Made by a program: the position numbers and the translations under genes. Source: a virus (lineage: Duplodnaviria > Heunggongvirae > Uroviricota > Caudoviricetes). Taken from it: a stretch of DNA of 64,000 bases. The DNA lies in IMG/VR virus record IMGVR_UViG_3300033146_000394, positions 1 to 64,000 of that record; one strand, 5' to 3'. Every line of letters starts with the position of its first letter. Positions within the stretch are counted from its first letter, which is position 1. The notes under the pieces are model-generated. The model saw nothing but the letters and a program-made list of their open reading frames with translations, was not told the origin of the DNA and searched no databases. This document shows, piece after piece, positions 3,651 to 60,875 of the stretch.

Positions 3651-3720
3651 AATATTATATTTTTCATTCTATGCAAAGATACAAAAAAAAAAAAACATAA
3701 CTATAATATTTTATGTGAAA

Positions 3721-4200
3721 TTAATTTATGATTTTTTTAGAAGTGATAATATCAGTATTATTTATTATAAAATTAATTATACCACCCTCAGTTATTAATA
3801 TTGCATCATACCCCTCAGAAAAAATTGTATCTATTTCAGATTCTATTATTTCCCACGTATCAGAATTAGAATTATTTTCTATTAATTCTTCATATGATGA
3901 ATATACGAGACCATTATATGAATCGTGTATTTCCTCAACCCAATCAAATAATCTTGCATAGTCGTCATCTTTTAATGAATTAAATACTTTTTTTGGTTTA
4001 ATATTTATTTCATATATATTACTCCCATAATCTTTTGAAAACTCAACACTTGTAGATAAAAAAACTTTTTTTAATTCAATTACACCATTTTTATAATCTG
4101 TACCACGATATGTTTTAATTATATCTCCTGTTTTTAATTTTCTCCAATCTGGACCATTAAAAAATAATTTTTCTTTTAAAAAATTTTTATAAAATTTCAT
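3721..4200 (-). CDS. putative mono-ADP-ribosyltransferase (R-S-E type)
   Basis: Has YRG (Arg), then 16 aa later STS, then about 75 aa later E-S-E. This is the spacing of the R/STS/[QE]xE triad of ADP-ribosylating toxins and T4 Alt/Mod enzymes. Motif-level evidence only. Confidence 0.35.
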   Translation of the reverse strand: MKFYKNFLKEKLFFNGPDWRKLKTGDIIKTYRGTDYKNGVIELKKVFLSTSVEFSKDYGSNIYEINIKPKKVFNSLKDDDYARLFDWVEEIHDSYNGLVYSSYEELIENNSNSDTWEIIESEIDTIFSEGYDAILITEGGIINFIINNTDIITSKKIIN

Positions 4201-4251
4201 GATTTATATATAAAAAATAAAAAATATAAAAGTTTAATTCAATTAACGAAT

Positions 4252-4563
4252 TTAATCTTTAAGAAGTATTGTTTTTAATTTTTCTTTTCGTATAATAATA
4301 TTATATAATACTTCTTCATAATCCTCAACATTCTTAGTTATATTGGACTTGAAATAATAAAATTGTTTAATTTCTCCTAAAAAATTATAATTGGATTTAA
4401 CAAAAAATATAATATCAAACATATCCCAATAATCTACTGTGCTTTTTGTTTCATTATAATAATCATCTAAAAAAGTATTATATAAACTATCATCCAAATT
4501 AAAATATGTTAAAGTATTAAACACACTATCTTCATTATTTAATTTTATAAAAAAATTACCCAC
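4252..4563 (-). CDS. hypothetical protein
   Basis: 103-aa ORF. Confidence 0.3.
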   Translation of the reverse strand: MGNFFIKLNNEDSVFNTLTYFNLDDSLYNTFLDDYYNETKSTVDYWDMFDIIFFVKSNYNFLGEIKQFYYFKSNITKNVEDYEEVLYNIIIRKEKLKTILLKD

Positions 4564-5032
4564 TTATATTATTATATATTTTTTCATCAACTATAATATT
4601 ATAATCCTCTAAATATTCATGTGATAATTGGTTGACTGCAATTAAATCAGTATCAATATTAGAATAATGTATATGATCAAATGCTTTAATTATTTCCCCT
4701 TTATCATCTTCCGTAGGAACTATTATTTTATATTTTGTATATTTTATATTACCATGAGCATAATCACTATATCTATTACCTTCTAATACTTTTTGTATGT
4801 TAATATTTTGAGTACTATTACTATCATTAATATAAGCACAATATTCTTCATCTAAACTACTTAAAACATATGATGCTGCTAATCCAGTTGCACTATGACC
4901 ATCTTTGTGTTCTATTTCTAGTGGTGATTCACAACATATTGACCACCCATCATCTTCTATAAATTTTATAAATTTTGCTGTCATTTTGTGATTCTTTTTT
5001 TTATTATAGTCAATTGATAATTTTTGTTTCAA
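4556..5032 (-). CDS. hypothetical protein
   Basis: 158-aa ORF with possible Cys/His active-site pattern (CCESP ... HSATG), unassigned. Confidence 0.4.
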   Translation of the reverse strand: MKQKLSIDYNKKKNHKMTAKFIKFIEDDGWSICCESPLEIEHKDGHSATGLAASYVLSSLDEEYCAYINDSNSTQNINIQKVLEGNRYSDYAHGNIKYTKYKIIVPTEDDKGEIIKAFDHIHYSNIDTDLIAVNQLSHEYLEDYNIIVDEKIYNNISG

Positions 5033-5068
5033 AAAAAAAAAGTAGAATATAAATATTCTACTTTTTGT
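5026..5068. terminator. hairpin with flanking A-run and T-run (intrinsic-terminator-like)
   Basis: aaaaaaaaaa-AGTAGAATAT-aaa-TATTCTACT-ttttg; the A-run overlaps the first codons of the minus-strand gene 4556..5032. Confidence 0.4.
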
Positions 5069-5364
5069 TGAATGAGTTCAGACTAGTACTGCTCATTGAG
5101 ACTATCTTACTTGAAATAAATCAGAGGTCGATAACACGCTATTTTAATCTAATATATGAAATTAATTCATATTTAATAAATAATATTATTAATGTTTTTA
5201 TTTTATATTTTATATCTTCTTTAATAAATGTTGTTTTATTAAAAGAAAATATACCTAAACATAATCTTAATTTCACTGATATAATCCCACCACAATTTTT
5301 CATTTACTATATATAGAATATCTAATATAAAGTTTATATAATTTATCAATATTTTTTTAATAAT

Positions 5365-58298: not shown

Positions 58299-58300
58299 AT

Positions 58301-58867
58301 ATGGCAAGTTTATATTTTAGATATTCGACTATGAATGCTGGGAAAAGTTTAGATTTATTAAAAGTAGCACATAATTATGAAGAACGACATAAAAAAGCAT
58401 TAATATTAACATCTGCATTAGATGATAGATATGGTCAAAACAAAGTTAAAAGTCGCTTAGGTGTAGAGAAATATGCATTAGGAGTTAAAAAAGATGATAA
58501 TATATTATTAATAGATGATTATAAATTATATGATTGTGTATTAGTTGATGAAGTTCAATTTTTTACTAAATACCAAATATATCAATTATCTGATATTGTA
58601 GATTATTTTAATATCCCAGTTATTTGTTATGGATTAAGAAGTGATTTTAAGAATGAACCATTTGAAGGTAGTTTGTATTTAATGACTATTGCAGATAAAA
58701 TAGAAGAATTAAGGTCTATTTGTTGGTGTGGTGCAAAAGCTAGTATTAATTGTAGAATAAATGATAATGAAATAGTTTATGATGGAAACCAAGTAAAAAT
58801 TGGGGGGAATGAGTCATATATTACATTATGTCGTAAACATTATAAAGAGGGTAAAATGAATAAATAA
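58301..58867 (+). CDS. tk: thymidine kinase (TK1 family)
   Basis: P-loop YSTMNAGKS, LVDEVQFF, and C-terminal Zn ribbon C..C...C..H typical of type II thymidine kinases. Confidence 0.8.
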   Translation: MASLYFRYSTMNAGKSLDLLKVAHNYEERHKKALILTSALDDRYGQNKVKSRLGVEKYALGVKKDDNILLIDDYKLYDCVLVDEVQFFTKYQIYQLSDIVDYFNIPVICYGLRSDFKNEPFEGSLYLMTIADKIEELRSICWCGAKASINCRINDNEIVYDGNQVKIGGNESYITLCRKHYKEGKMNK

Positions 58868-58885
58868 TTATTTATATATAATCAC

Positions 58886-59902
58886 ATGAAATATTTAATA
58901 ACAAAATTTAAAAATTATTATAATCATATTAATGAAAGTTATAATGTAGAAAATATAAATTATGATGAATCTATTATAGATTCATTTTATAAAGATAATT
59001 TTGATTTTTTTAAAGAACATGGTTTAAGTAGTGTTATTGATAATTTTAAATGGGGTTATATATATCAAAGTGTTGATGAATTATCATTAACAAATGATTG
59101 GAAAAAGGATTATATTGAAAATAGAGATAATGATGATTTAATTGATTATATACAAGAATATTATAATGAATATTATAATGAATATAAATCAAAATACATT
59201 GAAAATATAAATAAATTATTTATTGAAAGTTTTAGTGGGGGGCAAGATGATGAATTTGATGAAAAATTTGATTTTGATAAAACATATAAAGATTATAATT
59301 ATTTTGATAAAGTTGAAAAAATATTTAATTATGATGAAAGTTATTTAATTGATATTGTTGAGAAATCCCATTTTTATTCTTGGGTTTGGGATAAAAGATA
59401 TGATAGCGTGTTCGATTATATTAATGAAATATATATGGATCCAGATAATATAGAAGATAAAAGCTCAGATAATTATACCGAAGCAGTTTCTACATATTTC
59501 ACTGTAATTGAAAATTATATTGATGAAAAATATTTAAATAAAATATGGATTTCTAATATTAGTGCAGAAGTGGAAAAAATATATTATTTCGATAATAATA
59601 AATGGTCAGATGATTTTATTGATAATTTAATTGATTATGATTTAAATAATATTATATATATATTTAATGATATATCAAATATCACGTATTTTAATACATA
59701 TGAGCACCAAAAAGATTTAATAATAAGTATGTTTAGATATGAATCAGATATTAATATTACTGAATCAGATAATTATGATAAAGATTATTATTTACCAGAT
59801 ATATTATTTAACATAAATGAAAAATATAATTTAGTTGACGAAATTAAAAAAGAGTATAATACTTATATTATAAAAATCACAACAAACGAATTTAATATTT
59901 AA
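58886..59902 (+). CDS. acidic hypothetical protein ending in EFNI
   Basis: 338 aa, D/E/Y-rich; 3' end GAATTTAATATTTAA. Confidence 0.45.
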   Translation: MKYLITKFKNYYNHINESYNVENINYDESIIDSFYKDNFDFFKEHGLSSVIDNFKWGYIYQSVDELSLTNDWKKDYIENRDNDDLIDYIQEYYNEYYNEYKSKYIENINKLFIESFSGGQDDEFDEKFDFDKTYKDYNYFDKVEKIFNYDESYLIDIVEKSHFYSWVWDKRYDSVFDYINEIYMDPDNIEDKSSDNYTEAVSTYFTVIENYIDEKYLNKIWISNISAEVEKIYYFDNNKWSDDFIDNLIDYDLNNIIYIFNDISNITYFNTYEHQKDLIISMFRYESDINITESDNYDKDYYLPDILFNINEKYNLVDEIKKEYNTYIIKITTNEFNI

Positions 59903-59946
59903 ATATTATAGGTATTTAGCTTATTTGTTATCTATATATAACAAAT

Positions 59947-60816
59947 ATGAAATATCTAAATAAAATAATAAATGGTGATGGATTAGAAAATATTAAAAAA
60001 ATACCAAATGATTCGATAAATTTAATTTGTGTTGATCCACCATATAATATAAAAAAGGATAATTGGGATAATATTGATAATTACTTTAAATGGTTAAAAG
60101 ATTATTTTATTGAATTTGAACGAATATTAAAAGATAATGGGTCATTTTTTATATTTCATAATGATTTTAAAACTATTGCAAAAATAGACATTATAATAGA
60201 AGATAATACATTATTTAAACAAAAGAATTTTATTGTTTGGAATAAGAGATTTGATAATTCTAATAAAAAAGGATATTTAGATGGCTTTATACACTCTGGT
60301 AAAAGTAATCACTCATTTCAAAAAATGGCAGAATATGTATTATTTTATCAATTTGATTTATATCATAAATTAAAAGAGAAGAGATTAAAATATGGATTCA
60401 ACCAAGAAAAAATAGCAAAAGAAATATTAAGTAAAAATGGTAATCGTTCTGGATGGTATGCAAATATAGAATCTGGAAAAAGTTTTCCCAATAACACAAC
60501 GATTATTCCAATAAAAAAATATTTGAATTTAACAATTGATGATTTAGTTCCAGTGTTTAATAATCAAAAAATACATCATAGTGTTTGGAATTATGATATA
60601 GATTATAAAAAAATTGGACATATTACACCAAAACCATTAAATTTAATAAAAAATATAATTTTACATACAACAAATGAAAATGATGTTGTGTTAGATTGTT
60701 TTGGTGGTTCTGGGACATTAGCAGTAGCTTGTAAAGAATTGAATAGGAATTTTGTTTTAATAGAAAAAGAAAAAAAATATTGTGATATAGCAAAAGAAAG
60801 ATTAAATAGTAAATAA
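59947..60816 (+). CDS. DNA amino-methyltransferase (beta class, N6-adenine or N4-cytosine)
   Basis: Motif IV CVDPPYN near the N-terminus and motif I LDCFGGSGT near the C-terminus (beta order). Confidence 0.7.
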   Translation: MKYLNKIINGDGLENIKKIPNDSINLICVDPPYNIKKDNWDNIDNYFKWLKDYFIEFERILKDNGSFFIFHNDFKTIAKIDIIIEDNTLFKQKNFIVWNKRFDNSNKKGYLDGFIHSGKSNHSFQKMAEYVLFYQFDLYHKLKEKRLKYGFNQEKIAKEILSKNGNRSGWYANIESGKSFPNNTTIIPIKKYLNLTIDDLVPVFNNQKIHHSVWNYDIDYKKIGHITPKPLNLIKNIILHTTNENDVVLDCFGGSGTLAVACKELNRNFVLIEKEKKYCDIAKERLNSK

Positions 60817-60875
60817 ATGTTTTTATAATGATTTTTTTATTATCTTTGCAAAATATTAATTTAAAAATCATAATT

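Follow-up and report, generated by a model that had tools for sequence, protein, structure and literature searches.

Which RNA polymerase transcribes the genes of an uncultured huge phage, and in what kind of host? We address this question for a 64-kb stretch of tailed-phage DNA (positions 1 to 64,000 of IMG/VR record IMGVR_UViG_3300033146_000394, Caudoviricetes; hereafter the window), which is a piece of a huge phage genome with a G+C content of ~22%. The original prediction for this DNA had noted a recurrent promoter-like motif at eight places on both strands, each said to lie a fixed short distance upstream of an ATG, and had ascribed its use to a Bacteroidetes-type sigma-A or to a sigma factor that the phage itself encodes. 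We find that the motif is present at all eight places and that these sites, probably together with a ninth at 6634-6643, are very likely promoters for the housekeeping sigma-A holoenzyme of a Bacteroidota host.

The word TATCTTTGCAWA occurs in five exact copies in the window, compared with 0.06 expected from dinucleotide shuffles. Three degenerate copies (TACCTTTGCATT, TATATTTGCAAA and TATCTTTGTACA) complete the eight places, which are thereby confirmed; for the three degenerate ones the coordinates originally given are off by 1-2 nt. To avoid circularity, enrichment was tested on TAHHTTTG as defined in the literature (PMC6847099) and not on a motif derived from the sites. All eight sites contain TAHHTTTG, are intergenic and are co-oriented with the next gene. 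Across the window, the 112 copies of TAHHTTTG (19 intergenic) are not above chance, and the plain form TAnnTTTG shows no enrichment either (125 versus 144 expected). Eight copies, however, are intergenic, co-oriented and located 15-40 nt from an ATG, versus ~1.6 expected (P ~1e-4), and these are exactly the eight sites that had been noted. When C is required at -9 (TAHCTTTG), 7 of the 13 copies fall in the 15-40 nt zone (P = 2e-7). The longer form TAHHTTTGCA has 13 copies versus 5.3 expected; because its five in-gene copies match the chance prediction, the whole excess is promoter-proximal. CTTTGCA is the top 7-mer not made purely of A/T among the words over-represented within 70 nt before starts. 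The original prediction had named equal frequency inside genes and random distances from starts as grounds for rejecting it, and neither was found.

The distance to the start codon is narrow but not fixed as had been claimed, since the ATG follows the last base of the 12-mer after 16 to 31 nt, a range of 15 nt. One copy, at 60841, falls inside the longest open reading frame (ORF) call, which starts at 60828; the probable true start of this gene is an in-frame ATG at 60876, with which the arrangement is the same as at the other sites. The motif precedes only about 10% of the genes in the window.

We aligned the sites on the -7 box and placed +1 by the rule derived for F. johnsoniae, in which transcription starts 5 nt past the box (PMC6847099). 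The -7 element of Bacteroidota sigma-A is defined as TAnnTTTG (PMC6847099, PMC7366714). In F. johnsoniae, the bases T-12, A-11, T-8, T-7, T-6 and G-5 hardly vary, -10/-9 are free of G, an AT-rich motif lies at -18, and the -33 element is weak (PMC6847099). In Bacteroidota sigma-A promoters the latter element, TTTG/TTG, is placed 17-23 nt upstream of the -7 box. This housekeeping promoter type (sigma-ABfr; -33 TTTG, -7 TAnnTTTG) is the closest known counterpart of the window sites. Every one of the nearly invariant bases is present in all eight sites and in the ninth candidate. The box of the eight reads TA(T/C)(C/A)TTTG at -12 to -5, with no G at -10/-9 in any of them (TC in six, CC in one, TA in one). 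A T-run occupies -21 to -15 in seven of the eight, in keeping with the T/A-rich -18 region, and the box is followed by C-4 in seven and A-3 in all eight. The base at the predicted +1, 5 nt after the G, is A in six. A TTG with its G at -33 to -35, for which the chance is ~5% per site, is found in half of the sites and in the ninth candidate. The motif thus fits the Bacteroidetes-type sigma-A promoter in invariant positions, flanks and spacing, as had been proposed (PMC6847099). By comparison, canonical sigma-70 -35/-10 pairs (TTGACA-17-TATAAT) are not enriched in window positions 1-20000 (185 versus 245 +/- 17 in shuffles).

The predicted leaders, 16-31 nt long, also agree with this promoter type. 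The mode of 5' untranslated region length is 23 nt in B. thetaiotaomicron (PMC7366714), and the median is 24 nt in F. psychrophilum (PMC9723704). The leaders are thus of ordinary length for Bacteroidota, and the description of these mRNAs as leader-poor does not hold. Every copy of the motif is placed after the upstream gene has ended and before the start codon, so transcription might instead begin further upstream and the motif serve, within the RNA, as an element of the 5' leader that controls translation or stability. We regard this as extremely improbable: the copies differ by up to 15 nt in their distance to the ATG, none overlaps the start, the conserved flanks reach 35 nt upstream as they do for a promoter, and the motif exactly reproduces a promoter consensus already known from DNA.

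Symmetry in the motif raises another possibility, that it is an operator for a DNA-binding regulator and not a promoter. The palindromic core TTTGCAAA is present in three copies, and the motif at 30411-30426 reads on both strands. Four of the eight copies, however, read TTTGCAT and one TTTGTAC, which are non-palindromic; all eight point towards the gene downstream, an orientation for which a symmetric operator has no need; and the conserved pattern includes an asymmetric upstream T-run and the -33 TTG. An operator is therefore highly improbable.

If they are sigma-A promoters, the sites differ from their cellular counterparts in lying on a phage genome of ~22% G+C and not on a bacterial chromosome. 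The eight phage copies are also much more uniform than cellular ones, with TATCTTTGCA in five of the eight, and two of them belong to a duplicated 45-nt cassette. The 89% identity of the cassette pair indicates that at least some of the promoters spread by duplication.

If the sites are used as proposed, transcription would start 5 nt after the G of the box, usually at an A. The resulting leaders, A-rich and without a Shine-Dalgarno sequence, would be translated by Bacteroidota-type ribosomes. The ~10% of genes with a host-type promoter could then be expressed without any modification of the host polymerase, most plausibly as infection begins. That phages use the promoter consensus of their host is a well-established principle, and such promoters are an expected feature of the textbook kind. 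In T4, the early promoters are of the sigma-70 type and are served by the host RNA polymerase. Like T4-type large lytic phages, the phage studied here has near-consensus host promoters before a subset of genes, together with at least one phage-specific promoter class and an encoded specificity factor. Unlike T4 early promoters, its host-type promoters follow the Bacteroidota consensus and are scattered among the genes, with no grouped early region. The redirection of host polymerase by T4 is summarised in PMC5312081.

Table 1. Predicted promoters and other features of the window. Class A denotes the putative host-type promoters; +1 positions and leaders are predicted.
Feature	Position	Strand	Details
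Class A core TATCTTTGCATA, exact TATCTTTGCAWA copy	3670-3681	-	-7 box 3674-3681; predicted +1, G at 3669; predicted leader 19 nt to gene 2898-3650
Class A core TACCTTTGCATT, degenerate copy	9721-9732	-	-7 box 9725-9732; predicted +1 9720; predicted leader 24 nt to HD phosphohydrolase gene 9157-9696
Class A core TATCTTTGCATA, exact TATCTTTGCAWA copy	11740-11751	-	TTG with G at -35; head of leftward gene run 11717 to 7308; predicted leader 22 nt
Class A core TATATTTGCAAA, degenerate copy	16129-16140	+	TTG with G at -34; predicted leader 16 nt
Class A core TATCTTTGTACA, degenerate copy	23895-23906	-	Upstream of AAA_33 kinase gene 23294-23866
Class A core TATCTTTGCAAA, exact TATCTTTGCAWA copy	30415-30426	-	TTG with G at -33; before DHH-family gene 28689-30383; predicted leader 31 nt
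Class A core TATCTTTGCATA, exact TATCTTTGCAWA copy	47862-47873	-	TTG with G at -34; before gene 47173-47841; predicted leader 20 nt
Class A core TATCTTTGCAAA, exact TATCTTTGCAWA copy	60841-60852	+	Before gene 60876-61136; predicted leader 23 nt
Candidate ninth class A promoter TACCTTTGTA	6634-6643	-	TTG with G at -33; 103 nt upstream of gene 5556-6530, so long predicted leader
45-nt promoter cassette, two copies	16099-16143; 60811-60855	+	Spans -33 to +3; 89% identical
Gene run headed by 16129 promoter	16157-18334; 18376-19224; 19496-20155	+	Glycosyltransferase; SPFH; sigma
ECF-type sigma factor (Sigma70_r2 + r4_2)	19496-20155	+	Member of the co-directional run behind the 16129 promoter
Intrinsic-terminator-like hairpin, GAGAGG-loop-CCTCTC + T-run	20068-20094	+	3' end of sigma ORF
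ATATATA box, example	2487-2495	-	Examples also in relatives L001-L003 and L124-L129
ATATATA box, example	16083-16092		
ATATATA box, example	20102-20110	+	
ATATATA box, example	24950-24963		
ATATATA box, example	54453-54462		
ATATATA box, example	58872-58881		
Fused type II topoisomerase	51103-54372	-	Replication gene of the window

The genes behind class A promoters encode an HD phosphohydrolase, a kinase, a DHH phosphoesterase, a heptosyltransferase-like enzyme and four products of unknown function. The heptosyltransferase-like enzyme is the product of the 'GT' gene at 16157-18334 (+), whose C-terminal half matches the autotransporter O-heptosyltransferase TibC/Aah with 261 bits, over the family cut-off. 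The predicted transcript from the 3681 promoter (3650-3669, minus strand) opens with GAATGAAAAATATAATATTATGA, a mini-ORF of 6 codons that ends in a stop overlapping the main start codon. The long leader that the candidate ninth promoter would produce (6531-6632, minus strand) does not fold better than its shuffles (z = -0.7).

What does the motif say about the host? The exact 19-mer TTTTTATTATCTTTGCAAA, common to two of the phage copies, was found in at least 120 stretches of species-representative bacterial genomes, and 104 of the matches listed are titled Bacteroidota. These are mostly Bacteroidales, with some Saprospiraceae, Chitinophagales, Cytophagia and Marinilabiliales. Many of the genomes that carry the 19-mer have a G+C content of 40-50%, at which a chance occurrence of such a word is very unlikely. 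In 85 of 120 listed matches the 19-mer is followed within 150 nt by the start of an ORF of 60 codons or more, the median distance from the G being 33 nt. We then collected 95 independent TAHHTTTG boxes near ORF starts from the same 104 Bacteroidota stretches, excluding the boxes seeded by the 19-mer. These boxes carry C-4 in 71%, A-3 in 71%, and T in 51-64% at positions -19 to -15. Because they share these preferences, the 'GCA' extension and the T-run belong to the general Bacteroidota promoter and are not a peculiarity of the phage.

Translation signals point in the same direction. None of the 79 starts in the window has a Shine-Dalgarno core (GGAG, GAGG, AGGA or AAGG) at -20 to -4, so the complete absence of such sequences that had been reported stands. 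A accounts for 48-75% at positions -19 to -2 of the starts, and for at least 54% at all but two of these positions. Lack of Shine-Dalgarno sequences combined with A-rich initiation regions is the Bacteroidetes pattern (PMC6847099). The closest named relative of the window phage is LR756501, of 735 kb, and in the study that described it the genomes of >634 kb were predicted to infect Bacteroidetes (PMC7162821). Taken together, the consensus fit, the missing Shine-Dalgarno sequences, the taxa that carry the 19-mer and the kinship with LR756501 make the phylum-level host inference a reasonable one (PMC6847099, PMC7162821). In literature searches, the literal motif sequence returned unrelated primers only, and no paper specifically on phage promoters of the Bacteroidetes type was found in the library searched. 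The host may further be indicated by a relative, L002 (149 kb, groundwater), in which gene 1-689 (minus strand) weakly matches Por_Secre_tail, a type IX secretion sorting domain typical of Bacteroidota.

Several observations weigh against a Bacteroidota sigma-A promoter. The -33 element is absent in the other four of the eight sites. The 19-mer matches listed (at least 120) are perhaps not a random sample. The nearest named cellular homologues of the phage thymidine kinase are from Clostridia, with 55-58% identity; this is weak evidence because the protein is short, conserved and of AT-biased composition, and a Firmicute host would fit poorly with the total absence of Shine-Dalgarno sequences. 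No promoter-proximal TAHHTTTG box occurs in 32 kb of two closer relatives, L002 and L003, whose orthologues of the DHH gene have an ATATATA-type box (L002) or no promoter of their own (L003), which indicates that promoters turn over. Finally, green sulfur bacteria, which belong to the Fibrobacteres-Chlorobi-Bacteroidetes (FCB) group, have a related but different -7 motif (bioRxiv 10.1101/172254).

This last point allows a variant in which the sites serve as promoters for a related sigma-A in a host from outside Bacteroidota, for instance from another FCB-group phylum. Chlorobaculum RpoD promoters do resemble those of Bacteroidetes (bioRxiv 10.1101/172254), a homologue of the phage sigma (P0152) lies on a 212-kb contig labelled Ignavibacteria, and the thymidine kinase gives no Bacteroidota signal. 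On the other hand, the Chlorobaculum -7 consensus, TA[ATC][ATC][AT]T, lacks the TTTG that is invariant in the window sites, Bacteroidota make up 104 of the at least 120 19-mer matches listed, and related huge phages are predicted to infect Bacteroidetes (PMC7162821). We give such a host a small chance.

Host-type boxes are also found in other members of the clade. At the kinase locus, relative L129 has orthologous flanking genes (72% and 65% amino acid identity), with the kinase at 72%. Its kinase gene keeps the T-run and TTAT-nn-TTTGT at the site orthologous to 23895-23906, with only the two 'nn' positions changed, and L127 carries a decayed copy of the box there, TATCTTTAC. In L127-L129, boxes precede about 10% of genes, as in the window. 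Four 43-50-kb samples of LR756501 contain 12 boxes near starts versus 3.2 expected. A search of viral contigs for related loci with the DHH protein found none.

The original prediction had left open that the encoded sigma factor reads the motif. The sigma ORF at 19496-20155 contains regions 2 and 4, is of the extracytoplasmic function (ECF) type, with SigW as its best structural homologue by sequence, and has about 50 homologues on metagenomic contigs. Conserved ECF-like sigma loci are found in L127-L129 and L133-L147 as well as in the window. Such a sigma, acting on the host core polymerase, might make the motif a middle or late class and not a host-dependent one; its gene is conserved in the clade, and the protein is somewhat similar to Bacteroidota-specific ECF subfamilies (TIGR02985, 78 bits; NF058625, 67 bits). 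ECF promoters, however, typically carry AAC at -35 and CGT at -10, and no such elements are seen in the aligned sites. The motif instead equals the housekeeping consensus in every invariant position, and the 19-mer precedes ORFs in more than 100 Bacteroidota genomes, where no phage-encoded sigma is needed. The phage sigma is thus very unlikely to be the reader of the motif, and that part of the prediction is not upheld.

The sigma gene may nevertheless be linked to host-type promoters by its position. We compared gene runs in the window, in three close relatives and in a second subclade whose sigma is only ~35% identical. Of nine co-directional runs that contain the sigma gene, seven have a TAHHTTTG box at their head, compared with 7 of 43 other runs (Fisher P = 7e-4), although the loci are related and fewer than nine are independent. 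In the distant subclade (L134-L137, L141, L146), the run begins with a gene of ~610-620 amino acids that has TATCTTTGTA(A/T)(T/C) 4 nt before its ATG, a host-type box whose position would suit a leaderless transcript.

An ACTTTTTTWATATAT (ATATAT-type) block ~120-140 nt upstream of the sigma start is common to all four close relatives, and L129 has a terminator between its SPFH and sigma genes. Both features weaken the case for simple read-through from the 16129 promoter into sigma. Between the SPFH and sigma genes of the window, 19234-19339 (+) can form a long hairpin with a ~20-bp stem (z = -4.0; 0 of 200 shuffles fold as well). It has no T-run after it and no Rfam match, and the equivalent place in L129 holds an ordinary terminator. 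The hairpin at 20068-20094 is the probable end of the 16129 transcription unit. It lies inside the last ~30 sigma codons and is directly followed by the ATATATA box of the gene at 20115. Homologues of the sigma are ~15-20 residues shorter than ORF 19496-20155.

The dominant upstream signal in the window is ATATATA, usually after a T-run, which precedes about 40% of genes. Of 110 occurrences of TATATATA, 34 lie within 70 nt upstream of starts, and TTATATATA occurs 46 times versus 18.7 expected. Strict ATATATA is present within 60 nt of 32 of the 79 starts: none of the 8 class A genes has it, compared with 32 of the 71 others (P = 0.012). The host-type (TAnnTTTG) and ATATATA promoter classes are therefore separate and mutually exclusive in the window. 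Where the original prediction had spoken of a temporal gene class, the sequence itself shows a distinct promoter class. The gap from ATATATA to the ATG is bimodal: it is 4-6 nt in a sharp peak and 15-31 nt in a more widely spread group, and no gene of the window has a gap of 7-14 nt. Two peaks are seen in the relatives as well, among them LR756501, although four of its genes have gaps of 8-13 nt. If ATATATA works like a -10 element, the 4-6 nt group would give leaderless mRNAs.

This class, and not the TAHHTTTG motif, is reminiscent of the promoters of phiKZ/AR9-type jumbo phages, which are read by a phage polymerase. It is likewise extended, composed of A/T only and highly recurrent, and its spacing would put the start ~5-6 nt downstream. 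The AR9 early promoter consensus is AAATATATATTAT-N6-G (PMC5312081). In contrast to these promoters' setting, no gene for a phage RNA polymerase or its subunits was found among the window proteins scanned. We tentatively propose, as a possible but rather doubtful scheme, a two-tier programme shared by a clade of uncultured huge phages. Host-type promoters (~10% of genes) would head the sigma runs, and the phage sigma, or a phage polymerase that has escaped notice, would read the ATATATA class (~40%), including the leaderless subset. If true, this programme would employ leaderless mRNAs in a host phylum where such mRNAs are rare.

The G+C content of the window is about 20-27%, and 78-79 ORF calls on both strands cover 85% of it in a dense coding arrangement. 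No nucleotide-level match of the window to deposited phages was found, ARAGORN detected no tRNA, and Rfam no family. Exact searches with a 40-mer in viral contigs and a 57-mer in metagenome contigs gave no match either. At the protein level, the DHH, sigma and thymidine kinase products all match entries of 100% identity on one 84.8-kb JGI contig. The encoded phage-type replication and nucleotide-metabolism functions comprise, besides the topoisomerase, the thymidine kinase, an XPD-like helicase, a gp32-like single-strand-binding protein, a fragment of a family B DNA polymerase, an N6/N4 DNA methylase, a phage lysozyme and a tail-tube-like protein. The topoisomerase II shares 55% identity over 99% of its length with that of the 735-kb uncultured phage LR756501/LR756503. 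Its ORF has no ATG in the first ~200 codons, and when residues are counted from a TTG, both the ATPase domain and the LR756501 alignment begin at residues 4-64; the gene therefore probably starts at a non-ATG codon. Two ORFs ~40 kb apart, 5556-6530 (-) and 45375-47129 (+), both match phage DNA polymerase families (phrog_24943; phrog_262/1918 with Pfam DNA_pol_B), which suggests a split family B polymerase. The ~1.2 kb at 42159-43354 holds a single 52-codon ORF call, with no tRNA and no Rfam match.

In practical terms, the eight compact (~45 nt) near-consensus putative promoters are possible parts for gene expression in Bacteroidota. Most worth further work are the conserved link between host-type promoters and sigma-containing runs and the bimodally spaced ATATATA class. 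For the phage itself, the putative promoters provide a probable phylum-level host assignment, to Bacteroidota, from sequence only, for an uncultured huge phage of ~22% G+C whose window offers no CRISPR or tRNA clues. The split between a small gene set that the host polymerase could express and a majority with a phage-specific box amounts to a testable map of the infection programme.

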